From a bacterium (GTDB lineage: Bacteria; Bacillota; Clostridia; Oscillospirales; CAG-382), in contig CAVLDN010000006.1 in NCBI GenBank assembly GCA_963661975.1, forward strand, positions 30,421 through 94,420: 64,000 bases of DNA, given 5' to 3'. The notes below the pieces were generated by a model that was given only the letters and a program-made list of their open reading frames with translations, searched no databases and was not told the origin of the DNA. The translations under genes were made by a program, and so were the position numbers. Below, piece after piece: positions 30,300-39,871 of the stretch. Within the stretch, counting starts at the first letter, position 1. The number at the start of each line of letters is the position of its first letter.

Positions 30300-31232
30300 A
30301 TGAACCTGTTGCATATGAAATACGCCGTAACGATTGCGGATACCAACTCAATAAACAAGGCGGCGGAAAAGCTTTATGTGGGGCAGTCGGCACTCAGTCG
30401 CGCAATAAAGGAGCTTGAAGCAAGCCTGGGCGTTACGCTTTTCGAGCGGAGCGCCAAGGGAATGACATTGACTGCGGACGGCGAGGTGTTCGTGCGCTAT
30501 GCGCGGACGGTGTTGAAGCAGGTCGATGAGATAGAGAATATGTTCAACGAGGGCGCCGCGGGGAAGAAACGGTTTTCGGTCTGCGTTCCGCGCGCAAGCT
30601 ACATCGCCGATGCTTTTGTGAAGTTCTCGAAACTTGTGGGGGATAAGGGCGAGTCCGAGTTGTTTTATAAGGAAACGAACGCCATGCGTGCCGTGAAGAA
30701 TGTCCTGGCGGAGGATTATAAGCTCGGAATAGTGCGCTATGCCGAAAATTACGATAAGTATTATAAAGAGATGATGGAGGAAAAGGGGCTTTCCTACGAG
30801 CTTGTGACAGAGTTTTCATACCTGCTGTGCATGAGCCGCGATTGCCCGCTTGCCGATGTTGAAAACGTGACTTATGACGACCTTCGGGAGTATATAGAGA
30901 TCGCTCATGCCGATCCGTATGTTCCCTCGCTTCCGTATGCGGAGGTAAAAAAGGAGGAACTGCCGGACAATTCGCGCAGGAGGATATTTGTTTTCGAACG
31001 GGCAAGTCAGTTTGAGCTTCTCGCAAACAATACCGAAACCTTTATGTGGGTTTCGCCCGTGCCGCAGGAACTGCTTGACCGTTACGGGCTGATACAGCGC
31101 CGCTGTGAGCAGAACGGGAGAATTTACAAGGATGTTATGATACACCGCAGGGATTATTCGCTTTCCGAACTGGACGAGCTGTTTGTTTCCGAGCTTGTCA
31201 AGGCAAAGCGGCGGATAATCGGCGCGGAATAA
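30300..31232 (+). CDS. LysR-family transcriptional regulator
   Basis: N-terminal wHTH (MKYAVTIADTNSINKAAEKLYVGQSALSRAIKELE) plus a substrate-binding domain. Confidence 0.85.
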   Translation: MNLLHMKYAVTIADTNSINKAAEKLYVGQSALSRAIKELEASLGVTLFERSAKGMTLTADGEVFVRYARTVLKQVDEIENMFNEGAAGKKRFSVCVPRASYIADAFVKFSKLVGDKGESELFYKETNAMRAVKNVLAEDYKLGIVRYAENYDKYYKEMMEEKGLSYELVTEFSYLLCMSRDCPLADVENVTYDDLREYIEIAHADPYVPSLPYAEVKKEELPDNSRRRIFVFERASQFELLANNTETFMWVSPVPQELLDRYGLIQRRCEQNGRIYKDVMIHRRDYSLSELDELFVSELVKAKRRIIGAE

Positions 31233-31249: not shown

Positions 31250-31765
31250 ATGAAATGGCTTGTTGCTTCGGATATCCACGGAAGCGCGCTTTATTGCCGC
31301 AGGCTGCTTGAATGTATGCAGGCGGAAAGGGCGGACGGGCTGATACTGCTCGGCGATATACTTTATCACGGCCCGCGGAACGCACTTCCCGATGAGTACG
31401 ATCCGAAATCGGTCGCGGAGATGCTCAATGCGCTCGAATGTCCGCTGCTCTGCGTTCGCGGCAACTGCGACAGCGAAGTCGACCAGATGATGCTTGAATT
31501 CCCGATTATGGCGGCATACGCGCTGATGAATATCGGCGAAACGTCCGTTTACATGACACACGGCCACATAAACGGGCGGGATGATCCGCCGCGCCTGCGC
31601 AAGGGCGACGTGCTGCTTTGCGGGCATACGCATATCCCGGCGGATGAAATTCTTCCCTGCGGGGTCAGATATATCAACCCCGGCTCCGTCGCGATCCCGA
31701 AGGGTGGCTCCGAACGCGGGTATATCGTTATCGAAAAGGGCGAATTTATACGCAAAACACTTTGA
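31250..31765 (+). CDS. yfcE: YfcE/MJ0936-family phosphodiesterase
   Basis: SDIHGS..LGD..HGPRN..GNCD..HGH..GHTH motif series. Confidence 0.85.
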   Translation: MKWLVASDIHGSALYCRRLLECMQAERADGLILLGDILYHGPRNALPDEYDPKSVAEMLNALECPLLCVRGNCDSEVDQMMLEFPIMAAYALMNIGETSVYMTHGHINGRDDPPRLRKGDVLLCGHTHIPADEILPCGVRYINPGSVAIPKGGSERGYIVIEKGEFIRKTL

Positions 31766-31771
31766 AAATCG

Positions 31772-31811
31772 GCGTTCTCCGTGTTATATCGGCAGGGAGA
31801 ACGCATTTTTT
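31772..31811 (+). terminator. rho-independent terminator
   Basis: 9-bp stem gcgttctcc/ggagaacgc followed by ATTTTTT. Confidence 0.8.
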
Positions 31812-31870
31812 GCGTTTCAATCCGAACCATGTATATCGATAAACGCAACACTTATATGAAAAAGCGGCAA

Positions 31871-31899
31871 TTCCCAAATGCGCTTGCGTATGATAGAAT
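31871..31899 (+). promoter_or_regulatory. candidate promoter of the rex-hyd operon
   Basis: TTCCCA-N17-TAGAAT with TGa extended -10. Confidence 0.45.
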
Positions 31900-31946
31900 A
31901 ATGTTGTGGGAGAAGCAGTATTGCCGAAAAAGGAGGAGCTTGGGCA

Positions 31947-32582
31947 ATGAAGGAAAATGATATATCGCGCGCGACATTAGGACGGGTTCCGGAATACCTG
32001 CGTTTTCTGCGCGAGCTTCCTGCCGAAACGGAAACCATATCCGCCCCGGTCATTGCAAGGGAGCTTGGGCTCGGTGAGGTCCAGGTAAGAAAGGATCTCG
32101 GCGCACTTTGCGGTGCGGGCAAGCCGAAGATCGGATATCCCGTCGGTGAACTGAAGGATTCGCTCGAAGGTTTTTTGCGGCTCGGCGACGGCAGCACCGT
32201 TATCGTCGGCGCGGGCAAGCTGGGCAGAGCGCTGCTTGATTACGGCGGATTTTCGGAATACGGAATCGATATGCTCGCGGCATTTGATATAAGCGTTAAA
32301 AAACCCGAATTTTCTCCGCGCGGGCGCAAGATACTGCCGATTTCGGATCTCGGCGCGTTCTGCCGTGCACACAAGGTGCGCATCGGCGTGATTGCGGTGC
32401 CGGCGCAGGCGGCGCAGGAGGTGTGCAACCTTCTGTACGATTCCGGCGTGAAAACGATGTGGTGCTTTGCACCGAAAAAGCTTTATCAGCCCGCAGACGC
32501 GGTGATAAGATACGAAAATATGGCGCTTTCGCTTGCACATCTTAAGATGCAGTCACGCGATACGGGCGCGGGGGAAGCATGA
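31947..32582 (+). CDS. rex: redox-sensing transcriptional repressor Rex
   Basis: RVPEYLRFL wHTH start and Rossmann GAGKLGRAL. Confidence 0.9.
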   Translation: MKENDISRATLGRVPEYLRFLRELPAETETISAPVIARELGLGEVQVRKDLGALCGAGKPKIGYPVGELKDSLEGFLRLGDGSTVIVGAGKLGRALLDYGGFSEYGIDMLAAFDISVKKPEFSPRGRKILPISDLGAFCRAHKVRIGVIAVPAQAAQEVCNLLYDSGVKTMWCFAPKKLYQPADAVIRYENMALSLAHLKMQSRDTGAGEA

Positions 32583-33340
32583 ACCCCGACCGCATTATTG
32601 CGCTGCGGGCGACACTCACCGTATTCCGCGACGGCGATCGCTGTCTGAAGGTCTTCGGCGAGGAGCATTCGCAGAGCAGTGTGCTGTGTGAGGCATTCAA
32701 CGCCGCATACGCGGCGGAGGCGGGGGTACGGACACCGCGCATCCTCGAAGTGACGGAGATCGGCGGCAAACGGGCAATCGTCTCGGAATACATAAAGGGC
32801 AGAACGCTTGCGGCATTTGCCGCAGAGCAGGGCAATACGGGCGATTGCATCGCGCGGTTCGCTTCCGCGCAGGCGTATGTCAATTCACTTGCCGCACCCG
32901 GACTGCGCAGCGAAAAGGATATCGCGGCGGATGGAATATTGCGCTCCGGCTTGCCGCGGGATACCGCGGAAGCACTGCTTGCGATGAACGACGCATTCCC
33001 GGAGGGCGACAAACTACTGCACGGCACCCCGGAAATGAGTAATATTATTATCGATAACACGGATAACTTATATATTATTGACTGGGCGTGTGCATCAAAG
33101 GGCAGTCCGGAGGCAGATGCCGCGCGCGCGTATATACTGACAAGCCGTTTTCAGGGCACCGGCGCGGCGGAGGAGTATCTTGCGCAGCGCTGCAAGGCGG
33201 GCGATGTGAGCGCACGGGATATATTCAAGAGAGTTCCCGTTGCCGCCGCGGCAATGCTGCACCTGTACGGCGAACACGAAAGAGAAGCCTTGAAGGCTTT
33301 TATAAATACAAGTGAATTTGGTTTAAGGAGAAAATCATGA
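32579..33340 (+). CDS. APH/protein-kinase-fold protein with degenerate catalytic loop
   Basis: Kinase-like LKVFG lysine and IIDW (DFG-equivalent). The Brenner motif reads HGTPEMSN instead of HxDxxxxN. 4-nt overlaps with both neighbours. Confidence 0.7.
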   Translation: MNPDRIIALRATLTVFRDGDRCLKVFGEEHSQSSVLCEAFNAAYAAEAGVRTPRILEVTEIGGKRAIVSEYIKGRTLAAFAAEQGNTGDCIARFASAQAYVNSLAAPGLRSEKDIAADGILRSGLPRDTAEALLAMNDAFPEGDKLLHGTPEMSNIIIDNTDNLYIIDWACASKGSPEADAARAYILTSRFQGTGAAEEYLAQRCKAGDVSARDIFKRVPVAAAAMLHLYGEHEREALKAFINTSEFGLRRKS

Positions 33341-33579
33341 AGTTGACTGTTTGCATCGGATCATCCTGCCATATCAAGGGTTCGCGTCAGGTTGTGGAAC
33401 GGCTTCAGACGCTTATCCGCGAAAACGCGCTCGGGGACAAGGTGGATCTTTCCGGCACGTTCTGTATGGGCAAATGCCAGCAGGGTGTGTGTGTTACGGC
33501 GGACGGGGAGTTTTATTCCGTATCGCCCGAAAATGTGGATTCGTTTTTCGAAAGCACCGTGCTTGAGAGGGTGAACTGA
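33337..33579 (+). CDS. thioredoxin-like [2Fe-2S] ferredoxin (NuoE/HndA-like), copy 1
   Basis: Cx4C...Cx3C pattern (CIGSSC .. CMGKC). 80 aa. Confidence 0.8.
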   Translation: MKLTVCIGSSCHIKGSRQVVERLQTLIRENALGDKVDLSGTFCMGKCQQGVCVTADGEFYSVSPENVDSFFESTVLERVN

Positions 33580-33580
33580 T

Positions 33581-33841
33581 ATGCTTGTAAGGATATGTGT
33601 GGGCTCGTCTTGCCATCTTAAAGGCTCGGAAAAGGTCGTGGAACTGTTCCGGGCCGCGGTAAAGGAACGCGGCCTGGAGGACAGCGTTACGCTCGCGGGT
33701 AATTTTTGCGCGGGCAAATGCAATCGGGAAGGCGTTACCGTTACCGTGGAGGATGATATTTACACCGGAGTGACACCGCAGAATTTCGCGGAATTCTTCG
33801 AGGACAAAATTGCTGGAAGACTCAAAAGGGAAGGAGCCTGA
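33581..33841 (+). CDS. thioredoxin-like [2Fe-2S] ferredoxin, copy 2
   Basis: CVGSSC .. CAGKC. 86 aa. Paralogous to copy 1. Confidence 0.8.
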   Translation: MLVRICVGSSCHLKGSEKVVELFRAAVKERGLEDSVTLAGNFCAGKCNREGVTVTVEDDIYTGVTPQNFAEFFEDKIAGRLKREGA

Positions 33842-33848
33842 TCGGTAA

Positions 33849-35522
33849 ATGGATTGCCTTACACTGAAAAAGTCAAATTGCCGGAATTGCTATAAATGCA
33901 TACGCTACTGCCCCGTGAAATCAATTCGCTTTTCGGGGAATCAGGCGTATATTATCGGTAATGAATGTATTCTTTGCGGGCATTGCTTTGTTGTCTGCCC
34001 TCAGAATGCCAAGCAGATAGTGGACGAGACCGAAAAGGTCCGCGTGCTTCTGCAATCCGGGGATCCCGTTGTTGTGAGTCTTGCGCCCTCGTTTATCGCC
34101 AATTACGAAAATGTCGGCATCGGCGCGATGCGGGCCGCATTGAAGAAGCTCGGCTTTTACGATGCGGAGGAAACGGCGCTCGGAGCGACAATGGTCAAGA
34201 CCGAATACGAGCGTATGCTCCGCGAAGATGCGCGTGATATCGTGATATCCTCCTGCTGCCATTCGGTGAACCTGCTTATACAGAAATACTTCCCGAAGGA
34301 GCTTGAATATCTTGCGGATGTCGTATCGCCGATGATGGCTCATTGCAGCGACATAAAGCGCCGTATTCCCAATGCGAAAACCGTGTTTATCGGGCCGTGC
34401 GTCGCCAAGAAGGACGAAGCCGAGCATTATTCCGGCGCGGTTGATGCCGTGCTCACCTTTGATGAGTTGACGGCGTGGTTCAAGGCGGAAGGGATCGAGC
34501 CGGAGCAGACACCCGATCGGGACGAACATTCCCGTGCGCGGTTCTTCCCCGTTACCGGCGGTATTCTGAAAACCATGGCGACGGACGAATCGAAATATAC
34601 CTACATGGCGATCGACGGCGTGGATAACTGCATGGCGGCGCTCAAGGATATAGAAACCGGCAAGATCCACCACTGCTTTATCGAAATGTCCGCCTGCGTG
34701 GGAAGCTGTGTCGGCGGGCCGGTCATGGAAAAATTCCACAGATCGCCGGTGCAGGATTATAAATCGGTTTCTGATTTTGCGGGCAAGAAGGATTTCGAGG
34801 TGGAACAGCCGGATCCGCTTGCGCTCCGCAAGACATTTACCGCCATCGAAAGGAAGCTTCCGCAGCCGAGCGAGCAGGAAATACGCGATACTCTGCGTCA
34901 GATGGGCAAAATAAAGCCCTCCGACGAGCTGAACTGCGGATCCTGCGGATATCCGACCTGCCGCGATAAGGCGATAGCCGTCTGCCAGGGCAAGGCGGAA
35001 ATTTCCATGTGCCTTCCTTATCTTAAAGACAAGGCGGAAAGCTTTTCGGATACCATCGTGCGCAACACCCCGAACGGGCTGGTCGTTTTGAACGAGAAGC
35101 TGGAGGTGCAGCAAATTAACCGTGCGGCGCTGAAGCTGCTCAATATCCGCAACGAAAAGGACATTTTGGGCGACCAGGTCGTGAGGATACTCGAGCCGGA
35201 TGATTTTGCCGCCGTTCTTGCAAACGGAAGAAGCATTCACGGCAAGCGTGTCTACCTTGCGGAATACGAAAAGTATGCCGAGGAAACAATCGTTTACGAT
35301 CGCGAATACCGCCTGCTTGTCTGCATACTGCGCGATGTGACAGAGGAAGAGATACAGCGCGAAAAGAAAGAAAGCATCAGCAGACAGACTGTCGAGATTG
35401 CAGACAGAGTCGTCGACAATCAGATGCGCATTGTTCAGGAAATCGCATCCCTGCTCGGTGAAACAGCCGCCGAAACAAAGATTGCGCTTTCCAAATTGAA
35501 GGAGTCTATCGGCGATGAATAA
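33849..35522 (+). CDS. hydS: putative sensory [FeFe] hydrogenase (HydS-type, group C-like) with C-terminal PAS-like domain
   Basis: Two CxxCxxCxxxCP motifs. H-cluster motifs are SSCCHS, GPCVAKKDE and EMSACVGSCVGG. A Cys-rich CxxCx4Cx7Cx8C segment, then a PAS-like region and a coiled tail. Confidence 0.8.
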   Translation: MDCLTLKKSNCRNCYKCIRYCPVKSIRFSGNQAYIIGNECILCGHCFVVCPQNAKQIVDETEKVRVLLQSGDPVVVSLAPSFIANYENVGIGAMRAALKKLGFYDAEETALGATMVKTEYERMLREDARDIVISSCCHSVNLLIQKYFPKELEYLADVVSPMMAHCSDIKRRIPNAKTVFIGPCVAKKDEAEHYSGAVDAVLTFDELTAWFKAEGIEPEQTPDRDEHSRARFFPVTGGILKTMATDESKYTYMAIDGVDNCMAALKDIETGKIHHCFIEMSACVGSCVGGPVMEKFHRSPVQDYKSVSDFAGKKDFEVEQPDPLALRKTFTAIERKLPQPSEQEIRDTLRQMGKIKPSDELNCGSCGYPTCRDKAIAVCQGKAEISMCLPYLKDKAESFSDTIVRNTPNGLVVLNEKLEVQQINRAALKLLNIRNEKDILGDQVVRILEPDDFAAVLANGRSIHGKRVYLAEYEKYAEETIVYDREYRLLVCILRDVTEEEIQREKKESISRQTVEIADRVVDNQMRIVQEIASLLGETAAETKIALSKLKESIGDE

Positions 35523-36687
35523 CCTTTGCACCGATATAGGCTGGAAAAGTATCAATCACGAGGGCGAACAGCTCTGCGGTGATCATGTTGATATCGTGGA
35601 GCAGAACGAAAACTCCACCGTTATCGTGCTTGCCGACGGGCTGGGAAGCGGCGTCAAGGCAAGTATACTTTCCACACTTACATCAAAGATAATATCCACC
35701 ATGATGGCATCCGAACTGCCGCTCGAGGAATGTGTTTCCACCATTGCGGCGACACTCCCGATCTGCTCGGTGCGCGGAGTCGCGTATTCGACCTTCACCA
35801 TCATACATGTTATCGACAATTCCGTTGCGGAGCTTATCCAATACGATAACCCCCACATAATACTTCTGCGCGATTGCGAAAATTATGAATACCCGCGTTC
35901 GGAGCTCAATATCAACGGAAAGACGATATACAAATCGGTCATCAACCTGCGAGAGGGAGATATATTCATCGCCATGAGCGACGGCTGCCCCCACGCGGGG
36001 ATCGGTATCGCTTACAACTTCGGCTGGAAGCGCGAGGATATCGCCGATTACATGAAGACCTTTGCCCATGTCGGCTACACGGCAAAAACGCTTGCGACGA
36101 TGCTTGTCGACGAGTGCGACCGCCAATACGGCTTTCACCCCGGCGATGATGCCACCGCCTGCGTTCTGCGTATCCGCCGCCGCGAGCCGGTGAACATACT
36201 CTTCGGCCCGCCGCGATACCGCGATGACTGCAACAGAATGATGTCGCTCTTTTTCTCCAAGGAAGGCAAGCATATCGTGTGCGGCGGAACGACATCCACC
36301 ATCGCCGCGAAATACCTGGGCAAGCCTCTTGTGCCGAGCCTGGATTTTGAGAGCGGCGATGTGCCGCCGATCGCCGAAATAGAAGGCGTGGACCTTGTCA
36401 CAGAGGGGGTAATAACCGTCAACAAGGTGCTTGAATATGCCAGGGATTCGCTCGGCTCGAACGAAAAGTATGCATATTGGAGTGTTCACCGCGACGGTGC
36501 TTCGCTTATGAGCCGCTTACTTTTCGAAGAAGCGACGGATATCAACTTTTATGTCGGTCGCGCAGTCAACCCCGCGCATCAAAACCCGGAACTCCCGATC
36601 AACTTCAACATAAAGATGAACCTTGTGGAGGAGCTTTCAGCCTGCCTGAAAAAAATGGGCAAGCGTATCAAGGTAAGCTATTTTTAA
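35515..36687 (+). CDS. SpoIIE/PP2C-family serine phosphatase with uncharacterised C-terminal domain
   Basis: GEQLCGDHVDIV..VLADGLGSGVKAS..MSDGCPHAG PP2C-like motifs in the first ~210 aa. 8-nt overlap with hydS. Confidence 0.8.
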   Translation: MNNLCTDIGWKSINHEGEQLCGDHVDIVEQNENSTVIVLADGLGSGVKASILSTLTSKIISTMMASELPLEECVSTIAATLPICSVRGVAYSTFTIIHVIDNSVAELIQYDNPHIILLRDCENYEYPRSELNINGKTIYKSVINLREGDIFIAMSDGCPHAGIGIAYNFGWKREDIADYMKTFAHVGYTAKTLATMLVDECDRQYGFHPGDDATACVLRIRRREPVNILFGPPRYRDDCNRMMSLFFSKEGKHIVCGGTTSTIAAKYLGKPLVPSLDFESGDVPPIAEIEGVDLVTEGVITVNKVLEYARDSLGSNEKYAYWSVHRDGASLMSRLLFEEATDINFYVGRAVNPAHQNPELPINFNIKMNLVEELSACLKKMGKRIKVSYF

Positions 36688-36699
36688 GGGGAAAGTGTC

Positions 36700-38130
36700 A
36701 TGAGAAAATTCGATACAAAAGTCCAGCATCTGAAATACAAGGTATTGCGCGAAACGGCAAGACTCGCATGGAACGACGAGCTTACGTCAAAACTGCTTGA
36801 TATCCCCAAAATGATCGTTCCGGGCAACAAACCGACAATGCGCTGCTGTGTTTATAAGGAACGCGCGATACTCGGCGAGCGGGTTAAGCTTGCCATGGGC
36901 GGCGATAAACAGAACCCGAATATCATCGAGGTCATCGAGATAGCCTGCGATGAATGTCCGATGGGCGGGTATGAGGTGACAAACGCCTGCCGCGGCTGTC
37001 TTGCACACCGCTGCGAGGATGCTTGCCGGTTCGGCGCGATCGTGTTCGACGAAAACCATGTTGCGCATATCGACAAAACAAAATGCAAATCCTGCGGCGC
37101 CTGCTCCAAGGTCTGCCCCTATACCGCGATAATCAACCGCCGCCGCCCGTGCGAGAGCGCCTGCAAGATCAAGGCGATTTCCATGAACGAGGAAAACATG
37201 GCTGCCGCGATCGACAATTCCAAATGTACTGCCTGCGGAGCCTGCGTATATCAGTGTCCGTTCGGCGCGATAAGCGATAAATCCTTTATACTCGACGCGA
37301 TAGACATCATCAAAAAGAGCCGCGGCAATACCGAATACAAGGTCTTTGCCGTTGTGGCGCCCTCCATATCCAGCCAGTTTACATACGCCAAGCTCGGTCA
37401 GGTTATCAGCGGGCTCAAGGAACTCGGGTTCCATACGGTGGTCGAGGCGGCGCTCGGCGCGGACATGGTCGCGCTTTCGGAAGCGAAGGAGCTTGCCGAA
37501 AAGGGCTTCCTCACAAGCTCCTGCTGCCCCGCATTTGTGACATATATCGAAAATGCGTTTCCCGACTTGGTGCCGCATATTTCGCACAACCTTTCGCCTA
37601 TGGCGGCAATCGCAAAATACATAAAGGAGCATGAATCACCCTGCAAGGTGGTATTCATCGGCCCCTGCACCGCAAAGAAGGCGGAGGTTCGGAAGGAGTC
37701 GGTCAGCAAGTATGTCGATGTTGCGCTCACCTTCGAGGAGCTTCAGGCGCTGTTCGACAGCCGCGATATCGATATAACCACGCTCCCGGAGGGCATTTTG
37801 GACAACGCTTCCTATTACGGCAGGATATTTGCCCGCAGCGGCGGTCTTTCGGATGCCGTTGCCGAAGCGATCAAGGAGCAGGAGATAACCGGGTTCGAAT
37901 TGAAGAATTGCGCCTGCGACGGTATCGAGGAATGCCGCATGGCTCTGCTCAAAAAAAGCAAGAATATGCTTGATGCAAACTTTATCGAGGGTATGGCTTG
38001 TGTCGGCGGGTGTATCGGCGGCGCGGGATGCCTTACTCACGGCGAAAAGAACAAAGCGGAAGTCGATAAATACGGCAAGGAAGCGTTTGAAAAAACGATC
38101 CAAAATGCCGTTTCTCTGCTCGAAAAATAA
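36700..38130 (+). CDS. hydA: [FeFe] hydrogenase, catalytic (group B-like, multiple N-terminal Fe-S motifs)
   Basis: LTSSCCPAF, GPCTAKKAE, EGMACVGGCIGG H-cluster motifs. Several CxxCxxCxxxCP ferredoxin motifs. Confidence 0.85.
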   Translation: MRKFDTKVQHLKYKVLRETARLAWNDELTSKLLDIPKMIVPGNKPTMRCCVYKERAILGERVKLAMGGDKQNPNIIEVIEIACDECPMGGYEVTNACRGCLAHRCEDACRFGAIVFDENHVAHIDKTKCKSCGACSKVCPYTAIINRRRPCESACKIKAISMNEENMAAAIDNSKCTACGACVYQCPFGAISDKSFILDAIDIIKKSRGNTEYKVFAVVAPSISSQFTYAKLGQVISGLKELGFHTVVEAALGADMVALSEAKELAEKGFLTSSCCPAFVTYIENAFPDLVPHISHNLSPMAAIAKYIKEHESPCKVVFIGPCTAKKAEVRKESVSKYVDVALTFEELQALFDSRDIDITTLPEGILDNASYYGRIFARSGGLSDAVAEAIKEQEITGFELKNCACDGIEECRMALLKKSKNMLDANFIEGMACVGGCIGGAGCLTHGEKNKAEVDKYGKEAFEKTIQNAVSLLEK

Positions 38131-38174
38131 CAAAAAACGAAAACGCAGAGCAATATGCTCTGCGTTTTGCTTTG
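38131..38174. terminator. bidirectional rho-independent terminator (hydA / rnj)
   Basis: 12-bp stem aaaacgcagagc/gctctgcgtttt, A-run 5' and T-run 3'. Confidence 0.8.
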
Positions 38175-38194
38175 CCGCGCGGAATTGCGCTGGT

Positions 38195-39871
38195 TTAAAC
38201 GGTTATATCGAAAAGCATCGTGATGACCATCGGGCGGCGCTTTGTGCGCTTGCGCGCAAATTCGGAAATATCGTCGCGCAGGCGGGATTTGAGTACCGAA
38301 AGGTCGTCCACGCCGCGGTCAAAGGAACGCCCGAGCGAATTGCAGACTGCTTCCGAAAGATCGGAAAGCATATTCTCGCTTTCGCGCTCGTAAACAAAAC
38401 CGCGGGTGATTATTTCCGGCGGGGTGACTATTTCGCCCGCGGAGGCATCCACGCAGGCGGAAACGATTATCACGCCGTCCTCGGAAAGCTTTTTGCGATC
38501 CCGCAGGACAACGCCGCCGATGTTTCCGACGCCGTTTCCGTCGATCATAATTCCGCCGGCTTCGACGGTGCCGGCGTGCTTTATGCTGCGCTTGCTCAAC
38601 TCCACGACTCCGCCCACCTCGGGTATGATTATGTGAGTGTCATCCATTCCGAGCGAACGCGCGATATCCACATGTGCGATAAGGTGCTTGTATTCGCCGT
38701 GCACCGGGATAAAAAATTCCGGATTCGTAAGCGTGTGCATCAGCTTCAGCTCCTCGCGGCAGGCGTGGCCGGAAACGTGAACATCGTAATTGTTGTAGGT
38801 TATGACCTCCGCCCCGCGCTTGAAAAGCTCGTTGATGATCTTTGTGATGAATTTTTCGTTGCCGGGTATCGCAGAGGAGGAAAGCACGACAAGATCTCCG
38901 CTGCCGAGCGTGATCTGATTATGCTCGCCGAACGCCATGCGGTAAAGCGCGCTCATCGGTTCGCCCTGGCTGCCCGTTGTGACAACGGTCACCCGCTCCG
39001 GCGGGTATTTTTTGACATCGGAAATGTCTATAAGCGTGTCGTTTTCAATCTCAAGGTAGCCCAATTCCGTCGCGGCGCGGAAGAAATTCTGCATGCTGCG
39101 CCCCGTGACGGCGACCTTCCTGCCGTATTTTTCAGAGGCGTTTATTATCTGCTGTACGCGGTGTACGTTGGAGGAGAATGTTGCAATGACGACACGCCTC
39201 TTTTCACCGCCCAGCAGCCTGTCAAAGCTGACGGCAAGCGAACTTTCGCTCGGTGTGTAGCCCGGGCGTTCGGCATTGGTGCTGTCGCACAGAAGCAGGC
39301 GTATGCCTTTGCGCCCCAGCTCCGCAAAGCGGGCGAGGTCGATCGGGTGTTCGCCTACCGGGGTGAAATCAACCTTGAAGTCGCCGGTGTGGAGTATCCT
39401 GCCGACGGGCGTGCTTATGCATATTGCGCAGGAGTCCGGCATGGAATGGTTCACCGCGATAAATTCGGCTTCGAAAACGCCTGCACGGACGGTGTCGCCC
39501 GCGTGCACGCGGCAGAGCTTTGCGTTGCGGATGCCGTGTTCGGCAAGCTTGCCTTCGATTATTCCGAGCGTGAGCGGCGTTGCATAGACCGGTATTCCCG
39601 GGAACTTTTTCAAAAAGTAGGGCACCGCGCCGATGTGGTCCTCGTGCCCGTGCGTTATAAATAACGCACGCAGTTTTTCGGCATTGCTTTCAAGATATGA
39701 AAAATCCGGGATGACAAGGTCGATTCCCAGCATATCATCCTCCGGAAAGGCAACGCCGCAATCGACGGCGATAATGTCGTTTCCATAGGAAAAGGCGGTC
39801 ATATTCATACCGATGCCGTCCACGCCGCCGAGAAAAGCTACCTCCGTCTTCGGTTTTTTGGTTTTTGCCAT
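38195..39871 (-). CDS. rnj: ribonuclease J
   Basis: Beta-lactamase/beta-CASP fold: HGHEDHIGA, 558 aa, typical RNase J N-terminus FLGGVDGIGMNM. Confidence 0.95.
   Translation of the reverse strand: MAKTKKPKTEVAFLGGVDGIGMNMTAFSYGNDIIAVDCGVAFPEDDMLGIDLVIPDFSYLESNAEKLRALFITHGHEDHIGAVPYFLKKFPGIPVYATPLTLGIIEGKLAEHGIRNAKLCRVHAGDTVRAGVFEAEFIAVNHSMPDSCAICISTPVGRILHTGDFKVDFTPVGEHPIDLARFAELGRKGIRLLLCDSTNAERPGYTPSESSLAVSFDRLLGGEKRRVVIATFSSNVHRVQQIINASEKYGRKVAVTGRSMQNFFRAATELGYLEIENDTLIDISDVKKYPPERVTVVTTGSQGEPMSALYRMAFGEHNQITLGSGDLVVLSSSAIPGNEKFITKIINELFKRGAEVITYNNYDVHVSGHACREELKLMHTLTNPEFFIPVHGEYKHLIAHVDIARSLGMDDTHIIIPEVGGVVELSKRSIKHAGTVEAGGIMIDGNGVGNIGGVVLRDRKKLSEDGVIIVSACVDASAGEIVTPPEIITRGFVYERESENMLSDLSEAVCNSLGRSFDRGVDDLSVLKSRLRDDISEFARKRTKRRPMVITMLFDITV

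Follow-up and report, generated by a model that had tools for sequence, protein, structure and literature searches.

A reduced form of the Ruminococcus albus hydS-hydA2 cluster, with a degenerate kinase-like gene and no neighbouring adhE, in a gut-type Clostridia genome

How fermentative Clostridia of the gut and rumen sense H2, and how they switch between hydrogenases and ethanol formation, is a question that bears on interspecies hydrogen transfer, methane emissions, and the design of biofuel strains. Here, we describe a cluster of seven genes encoding the repressor Rex, a kinase-like protein, two small [2Fe-2S] ferredoxins (Fd1 and Fd2), a putative H2-sensing [FeFe] hydrogenase (HydS), a SpoIIE/PP2C-type phosphatase (PP2C), and a group B [FeFe] hydrogenase (HydB). 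It lies in a 64,000-nt stretch of DNA (hereafter the window) from a metagenome-assembled genome (MAG) of the CAG-382 lineage (Bacillota; Clostridia; Oscillospirales; assembly GCA_963661975.1, contig CAVLDN010000006.1, positions 30,421-94,420, forward strand). With near certainty, the locus is orthologous to the H2-responsive hydS-hydA2 genes of Ruminococcus albus 7 and represents a reduced, chromosomal form of that cluster, lacking adhE and carrying a degenerate kinase gene. Its host is an uncultured gut bacterium resembling Oscillospiraceae/Acutalibacteraceae. The best overall explanation, to which we assign a probability of roughly 0.6, is that this R. albus-type cluster works as an H2-sensing route to HydB. 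The locus does not reveal a new system. The first-pass annotation of this DNA had put it forward as an undescribed regulatory system, but the R. albus cluster has already been described, with an approximately 100-fold response when co-cultured with a H2 consumer (PMC6776011), and the related hfsABCD genes have been dissected genetically (PMC5707799). What is new here is the lack of adhE in the window, a kinase-like gene whose HGD motif has become HGT, which evolves fast and is frameshifted in sister loci, and the co-occurrence of kinase and adhE genes across relatives.

The cluster and its relatives

In R. albus 7, the products of Rumal_3400-3407 are given as a CoA-binding domain protein (Rex), an iron-containing alcohol dehydrogenase, an aminoglycoside phosphotransferase, two hypothetical proteins, a PAS/PAC sensor, a stage II sporulation protein E, and a hydrogenase (PMC6776011). 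The cluster has been reported as a single transcription unit (PMC6776011), and when W. succinogenes is co-cultured, all eight genes drop by 90-130-fold (Greening et al. 2019, PMC6776011). In HydDB, Rumal_3405 is classed as FeFe group C3 and Rumal_3407 (HydA2) as group B (PMC6776011). On pRUMAL01 (NC_014824.1; L088 in our set of loci), the cluster occupies 138999-147916 and a LysR gene 137906-138838, in the order LysR, Rex, adhE, phosphotransferase, two (2Fe-2S) ferredoxins, HydS, SpoIIE phosphatase, and hydrogenase; the counterpart of Fd1 is annotated by RefSeq as a (2Fe-2S) ferredoxin domain protein. Zheng et al. in 2014 reportedly placed hydS and hydA2 in a larger transcription unit that includes aad as well as genes for a kinase and a phosphatase of the Ser/Thr type and for a redox-sensing repressor.

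The window shares with R. albus 7 the order Rex, APH (the kinase-like protein), two ferredoxins, HydS, SpoIIE, and group B hydrogenase with LysR upstream, an 8-nt overlap between the HydS and PP2C genes, and the palindrome TATCGATA upstream of rex. Sequence identities between the two are 0.78 for PP2C, 0.75 for HydB, 0.71 for Fd1, 0.70 for HydS, 0.58 for Fd2, 0.56 for LysR, 0.48 for Rex, and 0.37 for APH. The parallel with R. albus 7 drawn in the first-pass annotation holds: along the whole protein, HydS and Rumal_3405 (C3) share 70% identity, and the last gene product is 75% identical to HydA2 (B). The two loci differ in four respects. In R. albus 7, the LysR gene is located 160 nt upstream of rex, whereas a metallophosphoesterase gene and a terminator lie in between in the window. 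R. albus 7 has adhE between rex and the kinase gene, which is missing from the 64 kb analysed here, and the R. albus kinase has an intact HGDFNPSN/IIDW motif where the window has HGTPEMSN. Finally, the R. albus copy resides on a 420-kb mobilizable megaplasmid, while the window copy is surrounded by housekeeping genes (ribosomal protein L19, RNase HII, RNase J, and a MurA-like gene).

Seven open reading frames (ORFs) on the plus strand, at 31947-38130, make up the cluster in the window. All start with ATG, each is preceded by a purine-rich, Shine-Dalgarno-like motif, and the junctions between consecutive ORFs are -4, -4, +1, +7, -8, and +12 nt. The ORF check confirmed the seven genes, coordinates, and tight junctions of the first-pass annotation, and profile hidden Markov model searches (Pfam and NCBIfam) agreed with every domain it had assigned (Table 1). 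Because of the terminators at 31772-31811 and 38140-38168, the operon appears to be insulated at both ends. The first of these sits between the upstream metallophosphoesterase gene and rex and marks the 5' boundary of the operon; the arms of its hairpin (31772-31804) diverge in sister loci, yet stay complementary. The second had been described as bidirectional. It does fold on both strands, with -20.6 kcal/mol on the plus strand (z -4.2) and -24.2 kcal/mol on the minus strand (z -5.1), but a clean T-run is found on the minus strand only, as the Us on the plus strand lie partly within the stem. No strong internal terminator was found within the seven-gene unit. The tight junctions and bracketing terminators predict that the seven genes form one operon, and the recurrence of the same gene order in dozens of species takes the arrangement beyond chance.

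A genome scan found 565 relatives, and the best 80 of 565 loci were analysed; the counts given here take in only loci that reach far enough for the neighbour in question. PP2C is encoded directly downstream of HydS in 73 of 73 loci. A group B hydrogenase is present in 54 of 63, and 73 of 78 encode one or more small ferredoxins (53 of 77 encode two). An APH-like gene occurs in 43 of 71 loci, and Rex is adjacent in 7 of 67. A frequent order is (LysR)-Rex-adhE-APH-Fd-Fd-HydS-PP2C-HydB, and in Monoglobus (L089, NZ_OY725740.1) the cluster consists of Fd-HydS-PP2C-HydB only, on a 335-kb plasmid record. The comparison of approximately 80 loci thus defines an obligate core of a small [2Fe-2S] ferredoxin, HydS, PP2C with its C-terminal domain, and group B hydrogenase, to which Rex, adhE, APH, and LysR are accessory. 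Co-conservation, which had been expected of the whole seven-gene set, holds for this core, while Rex and the kinase are only accessory. The two ferredoxins, regarded at first as extra electron carriers, are both present in R. albus and belong to what most related loci encode. Nor does one unit contain the whole pathway, as had been suggested: it lacks the adhE gene of R. albus and many relatives, and the conserved LysR gene lies outside the region then delimited. Five of the loci (L030, L042, L058, L017, and L056) come from records titled Methanocorpusculum, Acidiphilium, Atopobiaceae, Erysipelotrichaceae, and Anaeroplasmataceae; these titles are implausible for a Clostridia-type cluster, and mis-binned MAG contigs are the most likely explanation.

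The HydS core and its proposed signal path

HydS has a modular architecture. Its N-terminus matches Fer4 families at residues 7-54 (2x[4Fe-4S]) and is followed by an H-domain (Fe_hyd_lg_C, 1e-52), a 4-Cys domain (PF04060; 40.4 bits against a cut-off of 23, 2.5e-10), a PAS domain, and a helical tail. In a 33-sequence family alignment, C137, C184, C283, and C287 of the H-domain are invariant, and these H-cluster cysteines correspond to those in the motifs TSCCP, MPC, and ExMxCxxGC known from solved enzymes. Outside the H-domain, C11, C14, C17, C21, C40, C46, C50, C363, C366, C371, and C388 are likewise invariant in the 33 sequences, and C43 is conserved in at least 90% of them. The PAS signal at residues 401-499 is weak but consistent: PAS_9 (22.8 bits), PAS (21.7 bits), and PAS_8 (18.7 bits) each score slightly under the Pfam cut-off, and the region also matches the PAS domain of CitA (8bjp) by sequence (E=2.5e-4). 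The helical tail, QEIASLLGETAAETKIA (residues 525-541; 35421-35471), is the most constrained stretch of HydS, being identical in 70 of 79 loci in proteins that are 61-80% identical overall; it belongs to no Pfam family. A likeness of the tail to a signalling helix of methyl-accepting chemotaxis proteins was considered and dropped, as a lenient Pfam scan gave no MCPsignal match. These results bear out the HydS-type architecture noted earlier (2x[4Fe-4S], H-domain, 4-Cys cluster, PAS, and helical tail), which in its full-length form is widespread (898 clusters at 50% identity, E <=1e-30).

By its identity to the HydDB-classed orthologue of R. albus (118 of 166 residues match the Rumal_3405 H-domain fragment labelled group C3), HydS is assigned to group C3, with H2 sensing as its putative function. 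This places 33849-35522 among the putative sensory-type [FeFe] hydrogenases, as had been anticipated, and TIGR04105 places the last gene in group B. Compared with prototypical enzymes, sensory-type enzymes are marked by altered non-ligand residues near the H-cluster, at the positions of C299, M353, and M497 in CpI (PMC10055695). In HydS, the M353 and M497 positions are taken by G182 and S281, as in sensory enzymes, and the C299 position retains a cysteine (C136, in SSCCH), as part of a subclade motif (I)(S/T)SCCH. The latter position is variable across the wider family (Ala in 13, Cys in 11, and Ser in 6 sequences) and is therefore not strictly defining. Two biochemically characterized, putatively sensory enzymes, TmHydS of Thermotoga maritima (group C) and TamHydS of Thermoanaerobacter mathranii (group D), share with HydS the N-terminal [4Fe-4S] clusters, an H-domain in which small residues take the places of M353 and M497, and a 4-Cys cluster in the C-terminal part (PMC10055695, PMC13104023). 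The PAS domain is shared with TmHydS but not with TamHydS, the C299 position is Ala in TmHydS, and the near-invariant C-terminal tail sets HydS apart from both.

These features also bear on the idea that HydS is mainly a second catalytic hydrogenase with the two [2Fe-2S] ferredoxins as its dedicated partners, the PAS domain and PP2C being secondary. The proton-relay cysteine equivalent to C299 is kept in the subclade together with every H-cluster ligand, and possible H2 production by HfsABC without HfsD has been raised (PMC13277313). However, the Gly and Ser at the M353 and M497 positions are those of sensory enzymes, and a Met at the M497 position nearly abolishes the activity of TmHydS (PMC10055695). 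Together with the conservation of the PAS domain, 4-Cys domain, and invariant tail across the 898 clusters, and the listing of the R. albus orthologue under group C3, this makes a mainly catalytic HydS highly improbable.

Both ferredoxins match 2Fe-2S_thioredx, Fd1 with 30.9 bits against a cut-off of 24.8 and Fd2 with 31.8 bits. The ligands of Fd1 are C6, C11, C43, and C47, and Fd2 has the same Cx4C...Cx3C ligand set; the two proteins agree at 36 of 81 aligned positions. At the other end of the core, HydB matches TIGR04105 (FeFe_hydrog_B1) with 555.7 bits against a cut-off of 450, over model positions 1-461 of 462, and is presumed to be a ferredoxin-dependent, H2-evolving enzyme.

The phosphatase is of the SpoIIE/RsbU type. 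It matches PF07228 with 50.3 bits (cut-off 25), its metal-binding residues D23, D41, D156, D211, and D212 are invariant, and Foldseek matches its predicted fold to SpoIIE (5mqh, E=1e-11) and also to RsbU (3ke6). Its C-terminal domain (residues 223-390; 36181-36684) has a mean column identity of 80% across loci, and an AlphaFold2 model of this domain alone (pLDDT 76.5) predicts a Rossmann-like alpha/beta fold. A Pfam search of the domain at E values up to 10 gave no match, a profile search of PDB sequences gave only a weak SIS-like match (E=0.055), and in a Foldseek search with the model, E values stayed at 0.02 or higher and TM-scores at 0.41 or lower. A faint resemblance to the N-domain by which acetyl-CoA synthase binds ferredoxin was not significant. 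The HydS tail, the PP2C C-terminal domain, and the upstream block at 31820-31880 are constrained enough to act as interfaces or operators. Of the sister loci, L084 encodes a PP2C that is 96% identical to that of the window (dS 0.57), and L086 one that is 83% identical (dS 2.0), although the two loci are otherwise near-identical; PP2C may have undergone recombination or allelic replacement.

Anatomy, orthology, and the pattern of constraint can be read from the sequence itself; expression that depends on H2 or co-culture was shown for the R. albus cluster, and regulatory phenotypes were shown for hfs mutants. The model that we favour can be summarized as follows. A single promoter at about 31871-31899, with the TATCGATA element immediately upstream, would drive all seven genes. 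By analogy with TmHydS and TamHydS, HydS would react with H2 at an H-cluster tuned for sensing, and electrons would move between its [4Fe-4S] clusters at the N-terminus and the small ferredoxins, in either direction. The strict co-occurrence of HydS and PP2C suggests that HydS hands on its state, by way of its C-terminal cluster, PAS domain, and invariant helical tail, to PP2C, whose gene is translationally coupled to its own. As data from R. albus and T. saccharolyticum suggest, PP2C would then dephosphorylate a target, setting the expression or activity of HydB, which may serve as a ferredoxin-only H2 outlet that is used when H2 is high. Rex, judged from its family assignment, would add an NADH/NAD+ input. 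The opposing kinase in this organism would not be the product of the neighbouring APH-like gene.

Several observations weigh against this model. The signal path rests on inference at every step, for all members of the family, and the substrate that it gives to PP2C is hypothetical. Both co-transcription and H2 dependence in this organism are predicted from sequence. With the cysteine equivalent to C299 in place, HydS could turn over H2 faster than a pure sensor. [quoted passage not shown] The canonical Rex operator (TTGTTAA-N4-TTAACAA type) is absent upstream of rex, where the best match has 6 mismatches. Lastly, Pfam and NCBIfam searches found no STAS-domain or HATPase_c partner among the seven operon proteins. 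In this last respect, the operon departs from the partner-switching modules SpoIIE/SpoIIAA/SpoIIAB and RsbU/RsbV/RsbW, which its phosphatase resembles by sequence and predicted fold: it encodes no STAS substrate and no HATPase-type anti-sigma kinase, and the kinase of its relatives has an APH/Bud32-like fold.

The hfsABCD genes of Thermoanaerobacterium saccharolyticum offer a second point of comparison. Here, HfsB has been equated with HydS, HfsD with HydA2, and HfsC has been identified as a serine phosphatase homologue (PMC5707799, PMC11837493, PMC13277313); HfsB is a PAS-containing [FeFe] hydrogenase and HfsD is ferredoxin-linked (PMC11837493). Deletion of hfsB raises adhE expression and hydrogenase activity, while deletion of hfsC or hfsD gives a different phenotype, and the genetics support a regulatory role of HfsB that is tied to adhE expression (PMC5707799). 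This four-gene operon shares the HydS-phosphatase-hydrogenase part with the window, but it lacks rex and kinase genes and belongs to a thermophile, not to a gut-type Clostridia MAG.

The hfs genes raise the alternative that Fd, HydS, PP2C, and HydB are subunits of one Hfs-type hydrogenase complex, in which HydS and PP2C modulate HydB post-translationally, with no transcriptional pathway. The four core genes strictly co-occur and are translationally coupled (including the 8-nt overlap of HydS and PP2C), HfsA-D of T. saccharolyticum have been treated as hydrogenase subunits, with phenotypes that pair A with B and C with D (PMC5707799, PMC11837493), and the extreme conservation of the HydS tail and the PP2C C-terminal domain fits protein-protein interfaces. 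On the other hand, the R. albus cluster shifts about 100-fold in transcript, so that transcriptional control does exist, the complex itself is hypothetical, and HfsD alone restores the phenotype in T. thermosaccharolyticum (PMC11837493). We therefore regard an Hfs-type complex of this kind as rather unlikely.

The kinase-like gene and adhE

The kinase-like protein belongs to the APH family (PF01636; 43.2 bits against a cut-off of 23.2), but its catalytic loop reads HGTPEMSN, where homologues, including that of R. albus (HGDFNPSN), have an HGD motif. When aligned with a CTD kinase, a macrolide phosphotransferase, and a choline-kinase-family protein, the catalytic Asp corresponds to this Thr. 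The motif (HGD....N) is kept in 39 of the 43 homologues encoded at related loci. Other residues of the active site remain in the window protein: the Lys of beta3, the Glu of alphaC, the Asn of the catalytic loop, and the Asp that binds Mg. The HGT change is common to a 92% identical homologue (P0271) and two that are about 68% identical (P0272 and P0273), and in the latter two the Mg-binding Asp is missing as well, IIDW having become VVGW. The kinase gene of L084 and L085, both syntenic sister loci, is split by a deletion of 1 nt, an allele found on 5 contigs.

The substitution pattern adds to this picture. In comparison with sister locus L086, the ratio of non-synonymous to synonymous substitutions (dN/dS) is 0.31 for the kinase-like gene, against 0.043 for HydS, 0.053 for PP2C, and 0.040 for Fd2. 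The ratio dN(APH)/dN(HydS) is 9.5 here, whereas 70 pairs of adhE-linked loci have a median of 0.78 and a range of 0.53-1.19. The kinase-like protein of the window is thus probably a pseudokinase or the product of a decaying gene. The loss of the catalytic Asp does not have the same outcome everywhere: in the lineage of L073 and L077, the Asp-less protein is still strongly constrained (omega 0.07), and a non-catalytic role is possible in some lineages.

These findings are difficult to reconcile with a complete, self-contained phospho-relay, in which HydS would control the adjacent kinase and PP2C, and these two would regulate the hydrogenase through a substrate that they share, possibly Rex. 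Such a scheme was proposed for R. albus by Zheng et al., as far as its citation in PMC5707799 conveys, and it suits the arrangement of kinase-fold and phosphatase genes flanking HydS in one tightly coupled unit, as well as the residues retained in the kinase-like protein (beta3 Lys, alphaC Glu, catalytic-loop Asn, and Mg-binding Asp). Against it stand the Asp-to-Thr change in the window and its close relatives, the additional loss of the Mg-binding Asp in the 68% identical orthologue, and the frameshift in other strains, all while Fd, HydS, PP2C, and HydB remain strongly constrained. The dN(APH)/dN(HydS) ratio also lies far outside the range of adhE-linked loci, and 28 of 71 loci keep the sensor core without this kinase gene. 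Because the catalytic Asp is missing and selection is relaxed, a kinase/phosphatase relay encoded within this operon, as envisaged in the first-pass annotation, is unlikely, and in its complete form we consider it quite improbable. Since the neighbouring kinase is crippled in this locus, any opposing kinase would have to be encoded elsewhere.

What the kinase gene does follow across relatives is adhE. In relatives and in R. albus, adhE is located between rex and the kinase gene. A tblastn search of the 64-kb window with the AdhE of a relative did not find adhE, and rex overlaps the kinase-like gene instead. In every locus in which adhE directly precedes the kinase gene, the catalytic Asp is kept, while it is lacking in 4 of the 5 loci in which rex abuts the kinase gene, with Thr in the window, Asn in L073 and L077, and Lys in L031 as replacements. 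Counted across loci, 24 have both adhE and the kinase gene, 19 have neither, 7 have the kinase gene only, and 1 has adhE only (Fisher p=2.8e-7, ignoring phylogeny). Across relatives, the kinase gene thus co-occurs with adhE rather than with the sensor core, and it is dispensable where adhE is gone.

A tentative interpretation, which we hold to be possible though not probable, is that the kinase works functionally with AdhE and not with the H2 sensor, for example by phosphorylating AdhE or by controlling its expression or activity, and that the Fd-HydS-PP2C-HydB core is independent of it. If true, the window lineage would represent a natural experiment, in which adhE was lost, the kinase is left without its catalytic Asp, and its gene is now decaying. 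The kinase/phosphatase relay that has been proposed for HydS would then split into two separable modules, and the partner of PP2C would have to be sought among the HydS tail, the C-terminal domain of PP2C itself, and a TATCGATA-binding regulator. The obligate core, the kinase-adhE link, and the ideas on TATCGATA and LysR are all testable in R. albus or Thermoanaerobacterium.

Upstream control region and neighbouring genes

The promoter candidate upstream of rex scores 9 of 12 matches in a consensus scan, with a TG preceding the -10 hexamer TAGAAT. As a bare consensus match, it does not rise above chance (5 sites seen versus 7.3 expected). In syntenic sister loci, the -35 hexamer TTCCCA and the extended -10 element TGnTAGAAT are conserved, while the spacer between them varies. 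Because of this pattern, we accept the promoter half of the bracketing elements described earlier, and the conservation supports 31871-31899 as a real promoter.

The block at 31820-31880 is nearly identical in L084 and L086, although the dS of the flanking genes is 0.5-0.7. Its palindrome, TATCGATA, sits 37 nt upstream of the -35 hexamer. In windows of 280 nt upstream of the first cluster gene, the exact 8-mer occurs at 1.27 per kb, versus 0.05 per kb elsewhere in the loci, which is an approximately 25-fold enrichment. The 8-mer was found in 20 of 70 loci; among the 22 whose cluster begins with rex, 14 carry it, often as a pair spaced 14-15 nt apart. In R. albus 7, two copies lie upstream of rex (L088 3270-3300). 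The element differs from the canonical Rex box, and the neighbouring LysR protein is one candidate for binding it. LysR is also a candidate transcriptional regulator of the operon: 24 of 59 loci encode a homologue with 40-70% identity on the same strand as the first gene of the cluster and at most 800 nt upstream of it. The comparison of loci points to the cis-element TATCGATA and the conserved LysR as candidates for the transcriptional output of the system.

Of the proposed connection to Rex and NADH sensing, the identity of Rex stands; a canonical operator was not found upstream of its gene. Rex matches the NF003994 equivalog model with 197.3 bits (cut-off 130), both its winged-helix domain (Put_DNA-bind_N, PF06971) and its Rossmann domain (CoA_binding, PF02629) are matched, and dN/dS is 0.045 against sister locus L086. 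A search for Rex boxes across the window gave one match with at most 2 mismatches, which is at chance level. A variant palindrome seen in L062 and L083, TCGATA-N6-TATCGA, has only chance-level matches elsewhere in the window. Rex boxes with 1-2 mismatches are found immediately upstream of rex in L006 (e.g. TTGTTATAATATTAACAA), L017, L032, and L071, and one with 2 mismatches about 190 nt upstream of rex in L051, whereas the best matches upstream of rex in the window and in R. albus 7 have 5-6 mismatches. Autoregulation by Rex may therefore differ between lineages.

Table 1. Features of the cluster and its flanks, in window coordinates
Feature	Position	Strand	Evidence or remark
LysR-family transcriptional regulator	30300..31232	+	Pfam HTH_1, E=1e-20; upstream of the region delimited in the first-pass annotation
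Small calcineurin-like metallophosphoesterase (Metallophos_2)	31250-31765		Between LysR and rex
Intrinsic terminator of the metallophosphoesterase gene	31772..31811	+	Hairpin 31772-31804 followed by T6; -21.6 kcal/mol, z -4.9
Near-invariant block with palindrome TATCGATA (31834-31841)	31820..31880	+	Candidate regulator-binding site
Sigma-70-type promoter candidate	31871..31899	+	-35 TTCCCA, 17-nt spacer, extended -10 TGATAGAAT
Rex, NADH/NAD+-sensing repressor	31947..32582	+	NCBIfam NF003994
APH-fold kinase-like protein without catalytic Asp	32579..33340	+	Pfam APH (PF01636), E=5e-11
[2Fe-2S] ferredoxin 1 (Fd1), NuoE/HoxE-type, thioredoxin-like	33337..33579	+	Pfam 2Fe-2S_thioredx
[2Fe-2S] ferredoxin 2 (Fd2), thioredoxin-like, paralogue of Fd1	33581..33841	+	Pfam 2Fe-2S_thioredx
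HydS, putative H2-sensing group C3 [FeFe] hydrogenase	33849..35522	+	Fe_hyd_lg_C, PF04060, Fer4, weak PAS
SpoIIE/PP2C Ser/Thr phosphatase with conserved C-terminal alpha/beta domain	35515..36687	+	Pfam SpoIIE, 3.7e-13
Group B [FeFe] hydrogenase (HydB)	36700..38130	+	NCBIfam TIGR04105
13-bp hairpin terminator, common to the convergent hydrogenase and RNase J genes	38140..38168	both	Terminator scan, folding

Beyond the terminator that follows HydB, the RNase J gene occupies 38195-39871 on the minus strand (Pfam RNase_J domains). A 564-aa ORF on the plus strand (37970-39664) extends over the end of the hydrogenase gene and lies antisense to RNase J; it is almost certainly a spurious shadow ORF. 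On the other side of the cluster, homologues of the metallophosphoesterase (56-58% identical) are encoded directly upstream of the cluster in three of the related loci (L004, L007, and L009).

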